From the sequence record MN850590.1: a stretch of DNA of 64,000 bases; one strand, written 5' to 3'. The stretch's first letter is position 1. Each line of letters opens with the position of its first letter. The notes beneath the pieces were generated by a model. That model was not told where the DNA came from, searched no databases, and worked only from the letters and a program-made list of their open reading frames with translations. Positions 7,297 through 63,386 of the stretch are shown here, one piece after another. Made by a program: the position numbers and the translations under genes. This stretch comes from Escherichia phage moha.

Positions 7297-7791
7297 ATGA
7301 ATATCAATACTACGGCTACTTACATCCTGAAAGACGAAAAACAAATCAACTGGTACGGTGCTTCAGTGCGAGCTTATGAAAAGTTTTGTGAAATTTTAGG
7401 TGCCACTCAAGGTAATAGTTTCACTATTGTTAACTTCATCAAACAAGCTGAAGGCCCTTGGTTATTCTTAGAAATTAAAAATTCACACGGTACAATTTCT
7501 ACTACCGCCATTCCAAGCACCGACTTTGAACTGTTGATTGAAGAAGTAGAACCTGTTAAAGACATCTGTATTGATACGGATATCGCTTGTATGTACGGTA
7601 CTCTGATTAAGCCTATTGAGCCTACTGATTTGCTGTGTAAATATGTTTCAATTCGACGCCCATTCGCTGGTCCAGTAAATGGATGGGTAACTGATCAGTG
7701 GATTGAAGACGGTGTTGAACTTCTGAACGTTGTTCATGCAGGTGATTTTAGTGTAGTTCCACGTAGTGCTGTGGTTAATATTCTAAATTAA
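7297..7791 (+). CDS. hypothetical protein, tandem paralog family member 1
   Basis: C-terminal motif WVTDQWIEDGVELLNVVHAGDFSVVP shared with the next two ORFs. Confidence 0.6.
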   Translation: MNINTTATYILKDEKQINWYGASVRAYEKFCEILGATQGNSFTIVNFIKQAEGPWLFLEIKNSHGTISTTAIPSTDFELLIEEVEPVKDICIDTDIACMYGTLIKPIEPTDLLCKYVSIRRPFAGPVNGWVTDQWIEDGVELLNVVHAGDFSVVPRSAVVNILN

Positions 7792-7793
7792 TG

Positions 7794-7823
7794 TTGTACA
7801 TCCAAGGATGGATGGAGTATAGT
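7794..7823 (+). promoter_or_regulatory. T4-type early promoter
   Basis: TTGTACA, spacer palindrome ccaaggatggatgg, TATAGT. Confidence 0.55.
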
Positions 7824-7851
7824 GAATTCAATTTAAACAAAGAGAGAAATT

Positions 7852-8316
7852 ATGATTACTATTGGTGAAATTAAGCGTGTATCGACAGCGTCTCGTTCTA
7901 AAGCTGCAGGAAAGCTGGTTGAAGTAGTAGGACTTCGTACTAATGGCATGGGCCGTATTAAAGAAGTTAAAGTTCGAATCATTCCTAGTTCTGGAAAAAC
8001 TGAAACTCAGTTCGCCTATGTAAGTCCTAAATTCTTGGAAACTCGTGTAAGTGCCCACTTTGCTTCAAGCGATATCGTTGAGCCTACTACACAGTTCAAA
8101 TGGGCCTTATGTAAAGGTGTTGAATTCCAGACTGATAAAGAATTTGACTTCATCGATGAATACGGTTATCCAAGCAAAACTGATACTATGTGTGGCTTCA
8201 TTAGCGACCAATGGGTTGAAGATGGTAAAAAGCTATACAATATTGTATTCTTAGGTGACTTCCGAGTTGTTGAAGAATCTGAAATCACTCGCTATGTGTC
8301 TCCTCGTAAAGCTTAA
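7852..8316 (+). CDS. hypothetical protein, tandem paralog family member 2
   Basis: shares N-terminal ASRSKAAGKLVEV and C-terminal FISDQWVEDG motifs with member 3. Confidence 0.6.
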   Translation: MITIGEIKRVSTASRSKAAGKLVEVVGLRTNGMGRIKEVKVRIIPSSGKTETQFAYVSPKFLETRVSAHFASSDIVEPTTQFKWALCKGVEFQTDKEFDFIDEYGYPSKTDTMCGFISDQWVEDGKKLYNIVFLGDFRVVEESEITRYVSPRKA

Positions 8317-8325
8317 GGAATTATT

Positions 8326-8745
8326 ATGAATATTGTAAATCTCTCTACAGGTGATTACGTACACGTATCGGATGCTTCTCGCTCTAAAGTTGCCGGGAAG
8401 TTGGTTGAAGTTCTTTCTGTGAGTGATCCGGTTTTTGGACGTAACGAAGTTAAAGTTCGTGACGCCGATGGTAACATTGGTTACGTCTCAAGCCAGTTCA
8501 TTGAACCAGAAGAAAAAGCGTTCAAATGGAAACTGTGCAGGTCAGTTTTAGTTGTAAAAGATCATGAATTTACTATTGCTGCCGCAACTGATGGGTCTCC
8601 ATGGACAACGAATCAAGTCGCTGGTTTTATTTCAGACCAATGGGTTGAAGATGGTGTTAAGCTTTATAACATCGTTTTCGCCGGACAGTTCATGGTAGTT
8701 CCTGAATTCCAAATCAAAGGATATAGCCAAGCATCTTTTGCATAA
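8326..8745 (+). CDS. hypothetical protein, tandem paralog family member 3
   Basis: shares both motifs with member 2. Confidence 0.6.
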   Translation: MNIVNLSTGDYVHVSDASRSKVAGKLVEVLSVSDPVFGRNEVKVRDADGNIGYVSSQFIEPEEKAFKWKLCRSVLVVKDHEFTIAAATDGSPWTTNQVAGFISDQWVEDGVKLYNIVFAGQFMVVPEFQIKGYSQASFA

Positions 8746-8749
8746 AGTA

Positions 8750-8778
8750 GTTTACTTCTCCTCTGGTTTTGATATTAT
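8750..8778 (+). promoter_or_regulatory. T4-type early promoter
   Basis: GTTTAC, 17 bp spacer, TATTAT; lies inside a 13 bp inverted repeat whose distal arm contains the RBS. Confidence 0.55.
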
Positions 8779-8804
8779 AACCATATCAACCAGAGGAGAA
8801 TAAT

Positions 8805-9329
8805 ATGTTAGTTTACCGCGTAGAACGTAGTTTTTGTACTCAACGTGAATCATTACCCGGAATTGCTATCGAAGACGGTAAAGCCGTCAGAATTTGGGAA
8901 ACCTCTTGGAATAAAGAACCTCGCTCGCCGTACGGTTGGTCGGGTACCGACAACTCTGAAGAAACATGGGAGTTCCTTGATAAACACGGAATACTCTCAG
9001 GTAACTTCTACCATCACGGCGACAACTATAATGTCCCTAATCGTCCTACAGTAAATGAAGACAAACTCCTTGAACAAAATATCTTAAGATACTATAGAAT
9101 TGAGCACACATTTGAATTGAGTGAAGATTGGGCTCAAGGGTTCTATTTTGGATTTGAAAGTGTTGACGCGGTTTATACATGGTTTGATGACCAGGTGGAT
9201 GTTGAACTCTTGAAAGCTAAAGGATACTACATCGCGGTCTATGAAGCACCTGATTTCATACTCGGAAGTTGTCAATTAATGTTCAGACGTTCATTAGCAG
9301 AACAAGTTGATTTTATTTTGCTAAAATGA
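8805..9329 (+). CDS. hypothetical protein
   Basis: 174 aa; ATG with AGGAGA RBS. Confidence 0.55.
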   Translation: MLVYRVERSFCTQRESLPGIAIEDGKAVRIWETSWNKEPRSPYGWSGTDNSEETWEFLDKHGILSGNFYHHGDNYNVPNRPTVNEDKLLEQNILRYYRIEHTFELSEDWAQGFYFGFESVDAVYTWFDDQVDVELLKAKGYYIAVYEAPDFILGSCQLMFRRSLAEQVDFILLK

Positions 9330-9359
9330 TGTACAACAACTATGGTCTATGATACTATA
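9329..9359 (+). promoter_or_regulatory. T4-type early promoter
   Basis: ATGTACA -35-like, GATACTAT -10 region. Confidence 0.45.
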
Positions 9360-9386
9360 GACCTATCAAAACAAGAGGAGAATATT

Positions 9387-9614
9387 ATGAAACGTCAAAT
9401 CATTAAAAACGTAACTACTGATTCAAACATCGATGAGTTTGAAGATGTTCTGTTTAATCCTGATTTAGTTGTTGTACAGAAAAACTGGACTGAATTTTTA
9501 TGCTACACTGAAGTGGTTTACGTTTACGAAAAACTCGGCGATGAAATGCCTATCTATGGTATCTTCCGTGAAATCACTGAAAATGGTACAACTTATTGGA
9601 AGGAAACTTACTAA
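9387..9614 (+). CDS. hypothetical protein
   Basis: ATG behind AGGAGA RBS; ORF-track upstream extension covers the promoter. Confidence 0.45.
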
Positions 9615-12554: not shown

Positions 12555-13655
12555 ATGAAAGTTATGTTTATCCCATCTCGTGCAGTCCCATTTAACCCAG
12601 AACGTGTACAAGGTGGTCTTGAAGCAGTACATTTAAATGTGTTGAAATATCTTGTGTCCATCGGTGCCGATATTGATTATATTGGTTTTGATAATGACAC
12701 ATTTGGTGATTGGAAGGTTAATCATCATCCTGTTGGTCATCTGACTAAATTCAGTCTAGGTATGAGTTATACTATGGCTCGTAAGATTGTTGAACTAGCC
12801 GGCATCCATGAATACGATTTTGTTGTTACTATGGAACCGACTAAACTAACCGTTCAGGCAATTAAAGACGCAGGTCTCTCTAAAGTTCATAAGAATTTTA
12901 TGGCAACACCATTTGAACCGGTATCTCGTGGCATTGTTCAAATTTGGGACCAGACTATTCAAATTCATAAGAATGGTGGTAAGAGTTATGCTCCTACTAA
13001 AGCCTTCCGTGAATTTGAACGTAAATATTGTTATATGACTTCAGGTCTGACTGACAAAATTGATTATGATTATTGGCGAGCAAATCCTTTGTTTGAAGCC
13101 GAAGATTATCCGGTTATTTGTTTGACTGAAAAGCCAGAAGTTCTTCCGGCGACGGATCTGATTATTAGTGCACAACGTTATGACACTAAAATGCGTCGTA
13201 CTGATGTTGCTCTTGAAGCGATTAAAGCACTAGGCGAAAATGGTGCAGGATACTGTCCAAGCAAATGGGCGCCACCGGCTAAATATCCTGTTATTATTGA
13301 TGCTCCACACAGTGAAATTATGGAACGTCTTAAAACAGCTAAAGCACTTATTAATACGTGTCCTGACACAGGTACGGTAGAGAATAGTTCTATTGAAGCC
13401 ATCTCTAAAGGTGTCCCTGTAATCCAGTTAGTTTTTAAGGATTATCCTCATGCGACATTTGAATACGACCCAGATACTGTGCGTGTAGAAATTGATTCCT
13501 CTACTCCTAAGAAAGAAGTAGTTGCGCTTTACACAAAAGCTGTATTAGAATTCACTGACACATACGAAGCTCGAGTTAAACGTGCTGAAGCAGTATGGAA
13601 GAAGTATAACCGAGATGCAGTTGTTGCGATGTGGGATAAAATCTTCACAGCGTAA
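12555..13655 (+). CDS. GT-B fold glycosyltransferase (GT4-like), candidate DNA sugar-modification enzyme
   Basis: N-terminal MKVMFIP...GGLE motif and C-terminal E-x7-E-like block TGTVENSSIEAISKGVPVIQ; 366 aa. Confidence 0.7.
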   Translation: MKVMFIPSRAVPFNPERVQGGLEAVHLNVLKYLVSIGADIDYIGFDNDTFGDWKVNHHPVGHLTKFSLGMSYTMARKIVELAGIHEYDFVVTMEPTKLTVQAIKDAGLSKVHKNFMATPFEPVSRGIVQIWDQTIQIHKNGGKSYAPTKAFREFERKYCYMTSGLTDKIDYDYWRANPLFEAEDYPVICLTEKPEVLPATDLIISAQRYDTKMRRTDVALEAIKALGENGAGYCPSKWAPPAKYPVIIDAPHSEIMERLKTAKALINTCPDTGTVENSSIEAISKGVPVIQLVFKDYPHATFEYDPDTVRVEIDSSTPKKEVVALYTKAVLEFTDTYEARVKRAEAVWKKYNRDAVVAMWDKIFTA

Positions 13656-13670
13656 ATCCTGAATAGCCTG

Positions 13671-13723
13671 AGGCACTATTACACATAAGATGATAGATTA
13701 TACGGTCTTTAGTAATAGTGCCC
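13671..13723 (+). repeat. inverted repeat (11 bp arms, about 29 nt loop)
   Basis: ggcactattac ... gtaatagtgcc between GT gene and rIIA.1. Confidence 0.5.
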
Positions 13724-21072: not shown

Positions 21073-21111
21073 AGACCTATCAAAACAAAACAACCAAATT
21101 GGAGAAATAAA

Positions 21112-21744
21112 ATGTCTAAAGTTACTTACATCATCAAAGCTTCTGAAAACGCTCTGAATGAAAAAACTGCTGCAATAATGGTTTATATCATTAAGAACAA
21201 CTTCACCACTGCTGCCAATGTCCGTGAAGCTCTGGAAGCGGAATACAATGCATCAGTTGTTAACTCTAACATTGGTGTATTGATTAAGAAAGGTTTAGTC
21301 GAAAAATCCGGTGATGGACTTATAGCAACAGGCGAAGCAATGGATATTATCCAAAAAGCTGCAGACCTATTTGCTCAAGAAAATGCTCCAGAACTTCTTC
21401 AGAAACGTAACACCAGAAAAGCACGTGGAGTTACTCCTGAAATGCATGAACTAGCAAACTTTGTTTTTGAAAATATTAAAGATAAAGTTGAAGTTAAAGA
21501 AATTGGTGAAAACCGTAGTAACTTAGAAGTTCGATTTGCAAAACGAGTTCTAGGTATTCGTCAGATCGAAATTCGTCGAGATGGCGCTCTTAGAATCTTT
21601 GCATACAACATGTCAGAAACTGAATCAAAACTGTTTACTTCTCTTGAAAATGATGTTAAGATTAAGATCGGTGGTAAATATACTTACATTGACTTCCCTA
21701 ATGTGTCCAAAGAAATCATTACCCTTGTAACTAACGTACTGTGA
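21112..21744 (+). CDS. motA: MotA middle-transcription activator
   Basis: 210 aa; N-terminus MSKVTYIIKAS...VNSNIGVLIKKGLVEKSGDGLI matches T4 MotA as remembered. Confidence 0.9.
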   Translation: MSKVTYIIKASENALNEKTAAIMVYIIKNNFTTAANVREALEAEYNASVVNSNIGVLIKKGLVEKSGDGLIATGEAMDIIQKAADLFAQENAPELLQKRNTRKARGVTPEMHELANFVFENIKDKVEVKEIGENRSNLEVRFAKRVLGIRQIEIRRDGALRIFAYNMSETESKLFTSLENDVKIKIGGKYTYIDFPNVSKEIITLVTNVL

Positions 21745-52231: not shown

Positions 52232-52260
52232 GTTTACTTTGGTACAGGTTATGTTATTAT
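52232..52260 (+). promoter_or_regulatory. T4-type early promoter
   Basis: GTTTAC, 17 bp spacer, TATTAT; palindrome ggtacagg/cctgtacc spans the -10. Confidence 0.55.
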
Positions 52261-52301
52261 AGACCTGTACCAACAAACAACTTAAACATCTGGAGAATAA
52301 A

Positions 52302-53777: not shown

Positions 53778-54228
53778 ATTAGAAATAAGAAGTAATTTCA
53801 AATGGCCGTCATGTGCATTAAGTAACTTTGCTCAATGGCCTTTTGTTATGGATGGTATTCAATTCGGAGGTCTTGAAGGATTTCTCCAAGGATGTAAGGT
53901 GAAAAATGTTGAACAACAAAGACGTATATTTGGGCTGTCAGGACTGGCCGCACAGCAAGCTGGAAGGTCTTATGCAAGAGCTCAGGACCGTGGGACTCTC
54001 TTCTGGTTAGGAGTTCCATTTTCAAGATACTCTGAAGCGTGGAAAGAATTATACACAAATGCATATTTTGAAGCCGCGATCCAAAACAAGGGGTTTCGTG
54101 ATGCCTTACAAGCCTCTAAAGGAAAAATTTTGAAGCACAGCATGGCCAGCCACCTAACAAAAGATGATACAATATTAACCGAAGCCGAATTTATTGATGT
54201 GTTAAACCTATTAAGAGACTCTTTATGA
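53770..54228 (+). CDS. NADAR/YbiA-like domain protein
   Basis: LSNFAQWPFVMDGIQFGGLEGFLQGCK resembles the YbiA/NADAR core FSNF..WP..DG...E.FQ..K; about 152 aa from ATG 53770. Confidence 0.65.
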   Translation: MSELEIRSNFKWPSCALSNFAQWPFVMDGIQFGGLEGFLQGCKVKNVEQQRRIFGLSGLAAQQAGRSYARAQDRGTLFWLGVPFSRYSEAWKELYTNAYFEAAIQNKGFRDALQASKGKILKHSMASHLTKDDTILTEAEFIDVLNLLRDSL

Positions 54229-56818: not shown

Positions 56819-57006
56819 TGAAAGCTTATTTAGAAACAGTTATTGTAGCTAAGAAGGATGGTGGAGATGTTTCCACCTCTTGCTCTCAGATTATATTAGA
56901 TTTTCCTAATGAAAATTCGTATCGGGTTTTCGTAGATAACGTTAATGGGTACGAAAAAGGCCCTAATTTTGAAGTTTATCGTACTTTGCTCCCGATTGTG
57001 GATTAA
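56818..57006 (+). CDS. hypothetical protein
   Basis: 62 aa; TAATG overlap with ligase stop. Confidence 0.4.
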   Translation: MKAYLETVIVAKKDGGDVSTSCSQIILDFPNENSYRVFVDNVNGYEKGPNFEVYRTLLPIVD

Positions 57007-57026
57007 GAGCCTTCGGGCTCTTTTTG
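57006..57026 (+). terminator. intrinsic terminator
   Basis: gagcc-ttcg-ggctc then TTTTT. Confidence 0.7.
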
Positions 57027-57061
57027 GCATAAATATAAATTATTACTAAAAGGAAAACACT

Positions 57062-59149
57062 ATGTCTGAACAAATAAACGAAGTGTTTGAATCTGAAGGC
57101 AGTCTTCCTGTCGTCAATTTGAACCCTAAAGCTAAAGTTCCACAAGTCTGGAAAATTGGTGATATCGATACAAATATTGTAGTTCGTTTATTCTCTTACC
57201 TTTCCGAAGGCGACGCTGTAAAACAAGTTAAACTTGGCGACAAATACGCTCATGTTGTTATTATGAGTCTGTCTGAAAAGGGTAATCTCGCTGAATTGAA
57301 AAATGGCCTTGGTCCTGCTCCTATTGATGCAATCAACACCATTTTCAATACAGTATATGAACAAGTTAAAGCTCTTCGTATGGATGCAGTTCTGTTCCGA
57401 TTCCCTACCAAGAAATTGAAAGGACGTGGACAACAGCTTCAAACTCTTCTTGCTCGTTTAGTTTCTACTAAAACCGGTGGTCGTTTTAAAGTATTGTCGG
57501 CAATGTATCAATTCACAGGTAAACACACCTATGTGATGATGGTTCGTAAAAATGCCAACATTGAAGATATTAAAGGCATCCCTAACATTAACACAGAGTT
57601 GTACACGAAAGTAGATTCTGATGTTGGCGAAGTTTATGTGAGTAAAAAGACTGGCGAAACGGTTACCAAAGAAACTGCTATCGCTGGTTCTATTGCCGCG
57701 GTAGAAGAAAAACGTAAAGATAAGCCTGTTATTGCTCGCACCAAAATTTCTCGTCGTGCTATTGCAGCAAGTCAATCTTTAGAAGCTGACCGACAAGAAG
57801 GTGAGTTATTCCAGAAATACGAAAATTCTGCTAAAGAAGTTAGTGGCCCAGCTACAGCCGAATTACTTCCTGAAGCATATGAAATCGTACTAGCCCAAGC
57901 ATCGTCCACAGCAAAAGGCACTTTAGTTGCTGATATCGAAAATAAGATTTATAATCGTATTGATGAATCCTTTAAATTTGCTGATGAAGTTTCTTATGGT
58001 AGTGTTATTAAGCCGACTTTAGAAAAGTTTGCTAAGAAAATTAAAACCGAAAAAACAACATCTGTTAAAGCATTAGCTGCTTTTGTTGAAGCTGCAAATG
58101 AAATTGCAGACTCTATTAAAGACGAATGGTTTGAAGATTTTAGACGTGATAATTTCCAATTGCCTGACGACGTTTTAGCTGAAGTATCTGAAAGAACTTG
58201 GAAACAACGTAAATCAGCGTTCTTGTCTAATGTGATGTATACTTATGCACGAGAATCGGCTAGAGGCACCTTTAATATAACAATGAATCGGGACCCTAAA
58301 CAATACTCTGTTGCTGAAAAACGAGCTATTCGCGAATATGCCTCTTCTGCGTATACCGATATCAATAATATGTTGTTAGGCCGGTATAAACCGGATTTTT
58401 ATGATGTTGCAGATGAAGATGAAGTTAAACGCGCTATTGATGGTCTTGATTCGGCGTTTTTAAATGGAGACCGTTTACCTGAAGGACTAACGTTGTATAG
58501 AGCCCAGTCTATCAGAATGCCTATTTACGAAGCAATGGTTAAAAATAAGGTATTCTACTTCAGAAACTATGTTTCTACTTCATTAGCTCCTATTATTTTT
58601 GGTGGGTTTAAAGAGAACGTTGCCCTTGGACTTGCTCCTGAAGAAGTTCGCAAAGAGCTTAACATTGACAATAATGACGAAGGTGTTACTATTTCTCCTA
58701 GTCAAGTAAGAACAGCTATGCATGCACCAGAACAAATCCGTGTTAACGTTGGATGGGCTATCGATGGCGCCCATAAAGTTAACGTGATTTACCCGGGTCA
58801 GTTGAGTAATCACCCTAATGAGCAAGAAATTATTTTGCCTAGAGGCATTCTCTTGCAGATAAATAAAATTACAGATGCGTCATCTGACACTGGTGCAGGT
58901 TTAGAATCCAACCTTAAATTTATTCAAGCTGAAGTCATGTCCTCGGACCAGTTGGACGAAGCTGTCATTTACGATGGTGATGTTCTCATGGAAACAGGCG
59001 AGGTAGTTGCTATGACGGGTGAAATCGAATCAGATGAGCCGGTATCTTTTGCCTCATTTGTAGAAAAAACTAGTGCACCTAAAGGTTTGAAATTGTTAGC
59101 ATCTTTAATGGATTTAGAATCAGTTCCGTTTAAATTTATCCAAGGATAG
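57062..59149 (+). CDS. alt: Alt-like ADP-ribosyltransferase (virion-packaged)
   Basis: 695 aa (T4 Alt 682); position between ligase 30 and baseplate gene 54. Confidence 0.7.
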   Translation: MSEQINEVFESEGSLPVVNLNPKAKVPQVWKIGDIDTNIVVRLFSYLSEGDAVKQVKLGDKYAHVVIMSLSEKGNLAELKNGLGPAPIDAINTIFNTVYEQVKALRMDAVLFRFPTKKLKGRGQQLQTLLARLVSTKTGGRFKVLSAMYQFTGKHTYVMMVRKNANIEDIKGIPNINTELYTKVDSDVGEVYVSKKTGETVTKETAIAGSIAAVEEKRKDKPVIARTKISRRAIAASQSLEADRQEGELFQKYENSAKEVSGPATAELLPEAYEIVLAQASSTAKGTLVADIENKIYNRIDESFKFADEVSYGSVIKPTLEKFAKKIKTEKTTSVKALAAFVEAANEIADSIKDEWFEDFRRDNFQLPDDVLAEVSERTWKQRKSAFLSNVMYTYARESARGTFNITMNRDPKQYSVAEKRAIREYASSAYTDINNMLLGRYKPDFYDVADEDEVKRAIDGLDSAFLNGDRLPEGLTLYRAQSIRMPIYEAMVKNKVFYFRNYVSTSLAPIIFGGFKENVALGLAPEEVRKELNIDNNDEGVTISPSQVRTAMHAPEQIRVNVGWAIDGAHKVNVIYPGQLSNHPNEQEIILPRGILLQINKITDASSDTGAGLESNLKFIQAEVMSSDQLDEAVIYDGDVLMETGEVVAMTGEIESDEPVSFASFVEKTSAPKGLKLLASLMDLESVPFKFIQG

Positions 59150-61613: not shown

Positions 61614-63386
61614 TTAATTAACACCGGTGGCATGGAAAATTCCAGGAGCCGTTGTACTTGTTACAGGGGTCATATTCTGGACTACGGTATTCTTTTTGAC
61701 GACATTATTTGTGTTACTAATCGCCGTTACCGGTTGTTGTTGTTTAGACTCAGAAGCACGTCCTTTCTCTATTGACTGAACTTGTTTTGCTTCCGGAGAT
61801 TTAGACGAAGATTCAGGCTTAACTGTTGTCTGAGCTTTTTTGGCTTCAGCCATTTTATTATTTAGCTTTTCAAATCTAGCATCTAATTCCTTTTTAATAA
61901 CAGGAGTTTTATTAAGTTCAGGGTCTTTAATAAGTTTACTTAAATCAGCATAAGACTTCTCGACGTTTTTAGCATTTTCCGGATTAGTCATATCGATTTT
62001 ATCGATATAATCCTCAAATCTAACTAGTGCCGCACGAGTTTCATTAGCTTTTATATACGCCTCTTTACGCTCCTCTTCAGGTAACTCTTTTAATTTTGCT
62101 GATTCCGCAGCACGCTCATCGCTTGTACTAAACTCTTCTTTATTGTCATTACCACGAACCCAGTTAGTAACGAATGTTTTGCCGCGTTGTAACATATCAA
62201 GACCTTTAGAAACGGTTCCTAATTCCCCATCGTCACGTTTCATTTGATATTTAGCGACTTTCTCTTGGTCTTCTTTCTTTAATTTGTTCCCAGTAGTTTC
62301 TTGGAATCCTTCTAAAGCACGTCCTTCTATTTCGTCCGCGGTATCGCCAAAACCTATAGCACGCAATATAGACGCAGAGAGTTTAGCCATTCCTAATTGA
62401 ATTAGTTCACCTAAGTTCATTAATGCTGTTCCTACACCTTTGACAATAGCAACGGTTAAACCACCCCAGTCTCCAGCTTCCCACAATTGTTTTATCGAGT
62501 CAATAGAAGTGAATATATCACTTAAGAATTTGCCCCACTCTTTAGCTTCATCGGAGAATTTAGTAAAGTTTTCATCAAATAAATCCCAGGCAGAAGTGAA
62601 CTTGTCTGTCCAATATTTGAAATGGACTATCAATAAATCAATACCGATAACAATACCAAGAATAAGTGCGGCCATTTTTGCTGCTTCAATAGCAGCCGTT
62701 ATAGTGTATTTGAAAAGCATTCCAGCAATTCTGTCTGAAATTGATATTGATTTATTAAACCCGGTTTGAACTGTTTTGGTGAGCATTGCAATTTTATCGC
62801 TCAATTTAAAGCTAATTCCGCCTTTAGAATCGGAAGTAGAATTAGCACTTTCTTGAACCGGTGCTGGGAAGAAATCTTCGTCTGGTTTATTATCAATCTT
62901 TTCAGGTGTAGGGAATGCTTTAAACAACTCATCAGAAGTTTCATTCTCAACCACTTTAACAGGTATTGCGTTCTCAATTACTTCAAGAGAGGTGCCTCCT
63001 GTATTTTGAATAGCGGTAGATGTTTGTAATTTTTGCTCTAATAATGTAGCTAATCGGTCTAACTTAGAGCTTATTGCACTAGAAACTTCGTTTATACTTT
63101 TAGTGACTTCAGTTTGTTTTTCAATAACTTCTGCGATAAGCTCTGTGCCTTCAGCAGTATTATCTGACGAATTCTTTAAGTCTCCAATTGATTCAATAAT
63201 TCCATTGCCTTTATCTTCTACACTTTGTGATGTGAGTTCAGACGCGGCTTGGACATCGTCTAGTTTTGATGAAATGTCATTCAATGCTTCTAATGAATCG
63301 GTAGCTGCTGTTGCAGCTACTTTTTGTGGTTTATTATCGGCAATGACCTTATTTCTACGCATGGATTTCATTTCTTCAGGTTTCAT
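61614..63386 (-). CDS. 29: gp29 baseplate hub / tail length tape-measure
   Basis: 590 aa, same as T4 gp29; coiled-coil rich. Confidence 0.8.
   Translation of the reverse strand: MKPEEMKSMRRNKVIADNKPQKVAATAATDSLEALNDISSKLDDVQAASELTSQSVEDKGNGIIESIGDLKNSSDNTAEGTELIAEVIEKQTEVTKSINEVSSAISSKLDRLATLLEQKLQTSTAIQNTGGTSLEVIENAIPVKVVENETSDELFKAFPTPEKIDNKPDEDFFPAPVQESANSTSDSKGGISFKLSDKIAMLTKTVQTGFNKSISISDRIAGMLFKYTITAAIEAAKMAALILGIVIGIDLLIVHFKYWTDKFTSAWDLFDENFTKFSDEAKEWGKFLSDIFTSIDSIKQLWEAGDWGGLTVAIVKGVGTALMNLGELIQLGMAKLSASILRAIGFGDTADEIEGRALEGFQETTGNKLKKEDQEKVAKYQMKRDDGELGTVSKGLDMLQRGKTFVTNWVRGNDNKEEFSTSDERAAESAKLKELPEEERKEAYIKANETRAALVRFEDYIDKIDMTNPENAKNVEKSYADLSKLIKDPELNKTPVIKKELDARFEKLNNKMAEAKKAQTTVKPESSSKSPEAKQVQSIEKGRASESKQQQPVTAISNTNNVVKKNTVVQNMTPVTSTTAPGIFHATGVN

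Follow-up and report, generated by a model that had tools for sequence, protein, structure and literature searches.

The window analysed here is a stretch of 64,000 nucleotides (nt) of Escherichia phage moha (MN850590.1), and the element under study, an early promoter nested within an inverted repeat that takes in the Shine-Dalgarno (SD) sequence of the gene motB.2, is found on its plus strand; coordinates are those of the 64-kb window except where another genome is named. The phage is a Mosigvirus (RB69-like), the region in question being 98% identical to that of JK42, mar005P1 and APCEc01 and approximately 92% identical to that of RB69. The genes follow in the order dexA (6553), three MotB-like paralogues (7297, 7852 and 8326), motB.2 (8805), cef (9387), more genes and 39 (10695), with the element placed between the last MotB-like gene, which ends at 8745, and motB.2, in the dispensable region extending from dexA to 39. 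The features on which the argument depends are the following.

7852–8316 and 8326–8745, plus strand: two upstream MotB-like genes served by an early promoter at approximately 7795–7823, the likely source of read-through RNA
8738–8749, plus strand: A/T-rich stretch upstream of the -35 hexamer, at the position that an UP element would occupy (from the sequence)
8743–8745, plus strand: TAA stop codon of the upstream MotB-like gene, inside the A/T-rich stretch and 10 nt 5' of the stem
8750–8755, plus strand: -35 hexamer GTTTAC, the T4 early consensus, the homologous site being spanned by Pe:7443 of RB69
8756–8768, plus strand: proximal arm TTCTCCTCTGGTT, the anti-SD, which occupies the promoter spacer (from the inverted repeat and the folds)
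8770–8772 and 8773–8778, plus strand: extended -10 element, TGa and TATTAT, the TG extension being given by a consensus scan
8785 (+/-2 nt), plus strand: predicted transcription start, an A, the seventh nucleotide past the -10 hexamer (from promoter geometry)
8788–8800, plus strand: distal arm AACCAGAGGAGAA, including the SD GAGGAGA at 8793–8799 (from the repeat search and SD pairing)
8795–8805, plus strand: candidate RegB/S1 site GGAGAAUAAUA, matching GGAGRAYARAA at 10 of its 11 positions
8805–9329, plus strand: motB.2 homologue of 174 amino acids (aa), PHROG 1106, annotated as motB.2 in RB69

Read as raw sequence, 8738–8807 runs GCATAAAGTA-GTTTAC-TTCTCCTCTGGTT-t-TGa-TATTAT-aaccatatc-AACCAGAGGAGAA-taat-ATG, with a spacer of 17 nt between GTTTAC and TATTAT and a distance of 5 nt from the SD GAGGAGA to the ATG at 8805. 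GTTTAC at -36 to -31 is the consensus of T4 early promoters (PMC1524935), and an A-rich segment lying upstream of the -35 is a property both of these and of the PeSL (promoter-early stem-loop) promoters discussed below (PMC2839356; PMC1524935). In RB69, an early promoter, Pe:7443 (7394–7443, minus strand), was predicted by Nolan et al. with an hmmer model; it covers the homologous GTTTAC...TATTAT and its end falls on the position homologous to 8784–8785. An earlier note on this DNA, made from its letters, had proposed an early promoter at this site, and both the GTTTAC-N17-TATTAT arrangement with its TG extension and the independent prediction at the homologous site of RB69 bear this proposal out. 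The predicted start, A8785, lies within the hairpin (in its loop or inner helix), 3 nt 5' of the distal arm, and since the proximal arm is situated in the promoter spacer, it can only be contained in RNA that starts upstream.

The same note had described a 13 bp inverted repeat bracketing the -10 element, with the SD of the 8805 gene in its distal arm, and both statements are confirmed by the repeat search and the raw sequence: the two 13-nt arms, 8756–8768 and 8788–8800, are 100% complementary and separated by a gap of 19 nt. No perfect inverted repeat in the 64 kb whose loop is <=40 nt is longer than this one; perfect repeats of >=13 bp with such a loop occurred at a rate of 0.08 per dinucleotide-shuffled window, with 8 of 100 shuffles containing one, so that the length of the repeat is by itself moderately unusual and only suggestive. 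These eight shuffled windows are what speaks for the repeat having arisen by chance in intergenic DNA rich in AT, an explanation to which we give hardly any credence, as a chance origin is excluded by the placement of the repeat together with its conservation, with compensatory change and covariation, across four genera, and it is effectively refuted by the comparative data presented below.

Folding of the RNA agrees with the repeat search. A segment of 73 nt around the element folds at -24.1 kcal/mol (z -5.2), with none of 200 shuffles being equally stable, into 12 outer pairs (8756–8767 with 8789–8800), a 2-nt bulge and 6 inner pairs (8770–8775 with 8783–8788), giving a hairpin of 18 predicted base pairs in total. 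In a read-through context of 161 nt (-36.9 kcal/mol, z -3.35) the centroid structure is this same hairpin, and RNA from 8785 onward has no notable structure (-8.6 kcal/mol, z +0.95). The pairing probability of the SD, calculated from the partition function, is 1.00 in read-through RNA versus 0.31 in promoter-proximal RNA, which is the biggest such switch among the 14 definable early-promoter-led genes of the window; the 8805 gene also ties for the top SD pairing among 95 crudely called window genes. It had been claimed that transcripts reading through from upstream fold the ribosome-binding site (RBS) into a hairpin, which the folding supports, and that transcripts started at the promoter begin inside the hairpin and leave the RBS free, which the weak fold and low SD pairing of promoter-proximal RNA also support for the predicted start. 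Structure of only a few kcal/mol at an RBS, as de Smit and van Duin are said to have found, already cuts initiation by orders of magnitude, and the -24 kcal/mol of this hairpin greatly exceeds that. The terminator scan gave no terminator-like site between the upstream early promoter (approximately 7795–7823) and the hairpin, and read-through RNA is therefore to be expected.

Two other interpretations of the hairpin were rejected. An intrinsic terminator is contradicted by the sequence UAAUAUGUUAG after the stem, which contains no U-tract, and by the terminator scan, which makes no call at the hairpin. A known RNA family is contradicted by the whole window being without an Rfam match at gathering score, the sole match with E <1 in 8650–8900 being to a spurious miRNA model (19.5 bits versus a threshold of 99).

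Comparison with relatives, taken from GenBank phages, provides the evidence that this pairing is maintained; a MotB.2 protein search of IMG/VR yielded three near-identical loci of no use for covariation. Among the Mosigvirus genomes the distal arm is invariant and all substitutions are located in the proximal half. In NHEP11 a change of C to U turns a C-G pair into U.G, in PhAPEC2 an A to G change in the inner helix turns A-U into G.U, both with the pair retained, and in O157 typing phage 6 a change of U to A at the 13th pair leads to an alternative inner pairing taking over. In other genera, whose MotB.2 proteins are approximately 30–47% identical, the arms themselves are different. The Tequatrovirus leaders (T4, T6, e112, pSe_SNUABM_01, TH09 and PYps11T were compared) have the form GTTTAC-UUCCUCGG.UAGUUGUGG...CCAUAGCUACUGAGGA (-23.7 kcal/mol, z -5.5), with G.U pairs in the stem, and both of the stem substitutions seen among them, in PYps11T and e112, convert G.U into A-U. 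The leaders of Dhakavirus (Bp7, JS98 and 04086) have the form GTTTAC-UUCUCCUCAUG...CAUGAGGAGAA (-19.5 kcal/mol, z -4.6). In Enterobacter phage CIP9 (Kanagawavirus), the -10 region AUGAUGACCUC pairs with the SD plus AUG GGAGGUCAUCAU; as this -10 segment is also upstream of the start, the gating logic would be the same despite the different architecture, and CIP9 appears to present the same problem with its solution relocated from the spacer to the -10 hexamer region. SD sequestration at motB.2 is thus retained in four genera by means of three different stem architectures, and it accompanies the gene in different settings, with motB.2 and its promoter-hairpin located after dexA in T4, Dhakavirus and Kanagawavirus and after the motB paralogues in the window phage.

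Pairs were also counted in an alignment of 11 distinct TTCTCCTC-type elements, from which the T4 group was left out because MAFFT set UUCCUC against UUCUCCUC; this group was compared by folds. In the alignment 90.9% of cells were paired, compared to 45–64% when the 3' partners were slid, with the limit that the outer 8 pairs are invariant since the set was collected with that 14-mer and so have no evidential weight. Changes on both sides were found at 3 pairs (10 cells), and the covariation score was 0.164 versus 0.052 ± 0.021, with 0/500 shuffles as high. Different arm sequences, kept complementarity and tolerated wobble together point to the motB.2 leader pairing being under selection as a structure in sense-strand RNA.

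These comparisons also bear on a reading at the level of DNA, in which the repeat would be the operator of a dimeric DNA-binding protein or a cruciform modulating the promoter. In favour of it are the perfect symmetry of the repeat in moha, its position on either side of the -10 and the presence next to it of genes for DNA-binding proteins of the MotB-like type. The arms, on the other hand, differ between genera while their complementarity is kept, and G.U pairs as well as the changes of C-G to U.G and of G.U to A-U preserve pairing only in sense RNA and do not fit duplex DNA; cruciform extrusion is moreover disfavoured by a spacer of 19 nt. We therefore regard a DNA-level feature as very improbable.

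As regards the type of element, PeSLs have been described by Arbiol et al. (2010) and Comeau et al. (2014) as an A/T-rich stretch and an early promoter (TTTACW-N17-TAYWAT in T4/PST) with a stem-loop, followed by an SD and an ATG, the stem-loop occupying one of five positions (upstream of the -35, over the -35, in the spacer, over the -10 or just before the start) and being commonest in the spacer or over the -10 (PMC2839356; PMC4122927). They recur throughout hyperplastic regions, the roles proposed for them being termination or attenuation of transcription and the shuffling of open reading frame (ORF) cassettes by recombination (PMC2839356; PMC4122927), with terminator-like activity having been measured by Arbiol et al. 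in 2010 for one RB49 PeSL stem-loop (PMC2839356). The motB.2 element lies in an intergenic position of a hyperplastic early region and combines TTTACT-N17-TATTAT, a TGn extension and the upstream CATAAAGTA with a stable stem-loop at the promoter and a 3' SD and ATG; it is of a kind repeated in the genome and in relatives it is found at sites of indels and shuffling. Judged by every sequence criterion it is a PeSL cassette, sharing with the published ones the A/T-rich stretch, the sigma-70-type early promoter, the stem-loop overlapping the -10, the SD and the ATG. It differs in that its 3' arm is the SD itself and has no U-tract after it, and in that the published descriptions do not discuss translation: the word 'ribosome' is absent from the 2010 PeSL paper (PMC2839356) and 'translation' from the 2014 paper (PMC4122927).

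At least 11 more early promoters of the window have a stem-loop within the spacer or about the -10, recognized by a short inverted repeat, an example being the 11-bp perfect repeat at 52239–52249 / 52263–52273.

7237, 7795, 9333, 17967, 18476, 18737, 44631, 47221, 49348, 52233 and 53318, plus strand: PeSL-like early promoters

The SDs of the window's other PeSLs are largely open (pairing 0.16–0.65), meaning that inclusion of the SD in the stem is a specific trait and not automatic for a PeSL. Recombination at the motB.2 element itself can be seen in two genomes from which motB.2 is absent. In phage ST2 the motB.2 PeSL up to ...TCTGGTTT is joined to the cef PeSL (in the window at 9333–9389) from ATGATACTATAGACC..., and Tequatrovirus F2 has a similar motB.2/cef PeSL chimera with a crossover point unlike that of ST2; to judge from their sequences, these chimeras represent a PeSL-bounded indel. 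The record of ST2, a genome of 171 kb, is labelled Kagunavirus, which looks like a taxonomy error.

It may be asked whether the element is anything more than an ordinary PeSL, its stem-loop attenuating or terminating transcription that arrives from upstream and offering a patch of homology for modular recombination, with the overlap with the SD being incidental. The element fits the PeSL description, at most of the window's early promoters a stem-loop is found within the spacer or around the -10, and the ST2 and F2 chimeras and the terminator-like activity of the RB49 stem-loop are what such an explanation would lead one to expect. However, no U-tract follows the stem here, in T4 or in Dhakavirus, the terminator scan is silent, and the stems of the other PeSLs of the window stop before the SD, yet pairing of the motB.2 SD has been kept in four genera. 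For these reasons we consider this explanation unlikely, while giving it more weight than any other alternative treated here.

A further line of evidence is provided by RegB, the target of which is single-stranded, with the consensus GGAGRAYARAA, structured sites being resistant (PMC1702504). Intergenic GGAG/U motifs were tested in vivo by Durand et al. in 2006 (PMC1702504), and RegB was found to cut no more than two GGAU sequences in vivo, the SD of T4 motB.2 being one of them (PMC1702504), which shows that an open form of this SD exists in vivo, as expected of promoter-proximal RNA. RegB-cleaved sites are also known from RB69, a Mosigvirus (PMC1702504). In moha, GGAGAAUAAUA has U instead of A at position 10 as its one mismatch to the consensus, and it is predicted to be open only in promoter-proximal RNA. 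It resembles the RegB/S1 targets in having GGAG and an A-rich heptamer within an early-gene SD and in its T4 orthologue being cleaved in vivo, and differs from them in that the moha site is a candidate and that the interplay of hairpin and RegB would be an addition to what is known of such targets.

In view of this link, the hairpin could be concerned primarily with RNA stability or processing, whether by shielding GGAG against RegB, by protecting the 3' end of the MotB-like mRNA transcribed upstream or by offering a substrate of the RNase III type, with translational silencing as a side effect. RegB is blocked by structure, the SD is a near-consensus RegB site and the stem is long (approximately 18 bp), all of which would suit such a role. 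There is, though, no obvious value in shielding an SD that cannot be used, the stem always includes the SD or the SD plus AUG, and no conserved internal loop of the RNase III type is found, so that this alternative seems improbable to us.

The kind of mechanism that remains to be considered, promoter-dependent RBS unmasking, is known, as is the PeSL cassette family. The earlier note had stated that T4 uses promoter-dependent translation control at a few genes, and this holds for e, soc, 49 and I-TevI (PMC3014915), with the difference that the promoters of these genes are late. In these genes, as is predicted for 8750, a helix formed by upstream-initiated RNA holds the SD and/or AUG, and the promoter is located within the region of the 5' strand, giving a short RNA with a free RBS. 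The known promoters are of the late type (TATAAATA, gp55-dependent) and separate early from late expression, whereas the 8750 promoter is of the early sigma-70 type, read-through RNA would likewise be early or delayed-early, and T4 motB.2 yields early RNA and protein; no TATAAATA motif was found on reading the sequence of 8740–8805. The regulatory logic is consequently not an early/late switch. Reviews list e, soc, 49 and I-TevI together with some homing-endonuclease genes, all with late promoters (PMC3014915). The mobE hairpin of a T4-type phage is similar in being intergenic and occluding the SD of a dispensable gene; it differs in being tied to a mobile endonuclease gene and in that the review's sentence on mobE names no nested promoter. 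With respect to the literature compared, to which Miller et al. 2003 does not belong, what is new is the early promoter, the conservation at motB.2 across four genera and the recurrence at regB, nrdC.8 and modB described below.

We consider the element to be real and its gating function to be plausible, and are inclined to believe, with some reservation, that it is the head of a PeSL-type cassette whose stem-loop gates the translation of motB.2 by transcript origin. Polymerase initiated upstream, coming from the MotB-like genes by delayed-early extension, would transcribe both arms, 8756–8768 would pair with 8788–8800 in this read-through RNA, and motB.2 would not be translated from it. The GGAG would at the same time be hidden from RegB, making such RNA RegB-resistant while adding no MotB.2. 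Host sigma-70 polymerase, in turn, would start at approximately 8785 at the nested promoter, inside the hairpin, and produce an RNA with an unstructured leader of 20 nt and a free SD, which could be translated immediately after infection; as this free SD is also a near-consensus RegB/S1 site, own-promoter transcripts should lose their activity some minutes afterwards. MotB.2 would in sum be made in one brief immediate-early burst, whatever lies upstream, as would suit an element that passes from one genomic setting to another.

A number of points weigh against gating by transcript origin. The translational effect of the hairpin is a prediction, for moha as well as for T4 motB.2. Since the upstream and nested promoters are both early, the gain from silencing read-through RNA is less obvious than in the late systems, and ribosomes that terminate at the upstream TAA, located 10 nt 5' of the stem, could melt the bottom of the hairpin and permit a degree of coupling. 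A common Mosigvirus variant, found in APCEc01 and JS09, has a U to C change that leaves the stem with a central C.A mismatch (approximately -19 to -22 kcal/mol, the value varying with the flanks folded), indicating that full stability is not strictly required. Serratia phage WSPA (Muldoonvirus) has a motB.2 homologue without an SD hairpin, and the uninformative outer 8 pairs reduce the reach of the pair counting. The product itself is of little help: the Pfam search of MotB.2 gave no match and PHROG 1106 is of unknown function, and with its function unassigned, the gene offers no clue as to why tight control would be needed.

The same design recurs at other genes. T4 (NC_000866, positions 1–64,000) was surveyed with the same pipeline, which recovered the positive controls (gene 49 with SD pairing of 1.00 and soc with AUG pairing of 1.00) and gave nested early promoter/SD hairpins at approximately 4 of approximately 20 early promoters in the 64 kb surveyed.

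T4 motB.2, ATG at 8161: SD paired 0.99 in read-through versus 0.21 in promoter-proximal RNA, -23.7 kcal/mol
T4 modB, ATG at 13130: -10 region pairs with SD plus AUG, -23.8 kcal/mol
T4 nrdC.8, ATG at 53885: anti-SD in the spacer, -25.1 kcal/mol
T4 regB, ATG at 62740: UUUUCCUCUUGACUG / CAGUUAAGAGGAGAA, -23.1 kcal/mol, the -35 being followed at once by the proximal arm

A time-resolved omics study assigned all four genes to the class 'early RNA, early protein', and three of the four (motB.2, nrdC.8 and regB) are in vivo RegB targets, nrdC.8 being moderately cut (PMC1702504) and the SD of regB being a known target (Hinton 2010 review). In the window, a second case is found at 2716–2773, in the position of T4 modB, where GTTTACA-N16-TATGAT is combined with a fold of the modB type (-22.5 kcal/mol, z -4.35), with the -10 region CGTGTTATGATAGGCT pairing with the SD, AUG and first codons GGAGGTCTATCATGACATG. 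An exact 14-mer scan of IMG/VR produced 122 matches, mostly chance occurrences in coding DNA, with approximately 18 of the 122 having the promoter and GAGGAGA. The head GTTTAC-TTCTCCTC...GAGGAGAA-N4-5-ATG was found at unrelated genes of Av-05 (two) and of the IMG/VR contigs L051 (two) and L057 (two), with inner stems that differ (TAGTTG/CAACTA, TTTT/AAAA and TTCTTTG/CAAAGAA), a distribution which suggests that cassettes with the TTCTCCTC anti-SD head move horizontally.

Av-05, which is classed outside Straboviridae (Vequintavirinae) and has an rI gene, carries a T4-type GTTTAC promoter along with the TTCTCCTC head. L057 is an environmental phage contig with a thyX distantly similar to that of Melnitz.

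It is possible, and we advance this only tentatively, that T4-type phages possess recurrent self-insulating early cassettes, with an anti-SD in the spacer or -10 region, which would be translated only from their own immediate-early RNA in a pulse sharpened by RegB. Candidate members of this class are T4 motB.2, regB, nrdC.8 and modB, 8750–8807 and 2716–2773 of the window, and the cassettes of Av-05 and the environmental phages; no name for it was found in the PeSL and T4 literature compared. If such cassettes exist, PeSL-plus-ORF modules would be context-independent and hence freely portable; the PeSL shuffling model would gain a level of translational control, and at least some PeSL stem-loops a function besides termination and recombination. 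Each small gene would have its own expression programme in a dense, promoter-rich early region lacking terminators, with translation tied to transcript origin and RegB then erasing the sole translatable copies, which would also explain the RegB resistance of some GGAG sites in long RNAs. For annotation it would mean that, towards the end of the early period, RNA-seq coverage of these genes is no proof that protein is being made. T4 motB.2, regB, nrdC.8 and modB constitute a conserved and easily mutated test case in the best-studied phage.

Several minor observations were made in the surroundings of the element and elsewhere in the window. The three tandem MotB-like paralogues at 7297–8745 encode proteins of 164, 154 and 139 aa (Pfam PF17613), the third (8326) being without a promoter of its own and starting 9 nt after the second; T4 has motB.2, motB.1 and a single motB where the window has these three. 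The ORF list starts cef at the ATG at 9342 (90 aa), inside the cef promoter spacer, and the start with an SD (AGAGGAGAA) is the one at 9387, which matches the annotation of APCEc01. The Alt-like ADP-ribosyltransferase gene (695 aa) is preceded, at 56980–57064, by a terminator with a UUCG loop (GAGCCUUCGGGCUC followed by a U-run) and also by a late-promoter-like ATAAATA; the high SD pairing of this gene at 57062 was rejected as a further case, being due to the terminator U-run and receiving no support from the centroid structure. At 21098–21114 a MotA homologue (Pfam MotA_activ and MotCF) has the SD GGAGAAAUAAAAUG, which is near the T4 RegB consensus and without a masking hairpin. Finally, 13672–13722 contains a perfect inverted repeat of 11 bp (GGCACTATTAC ... 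GTAATAGTGCC), the loop of which measures 29 nt.

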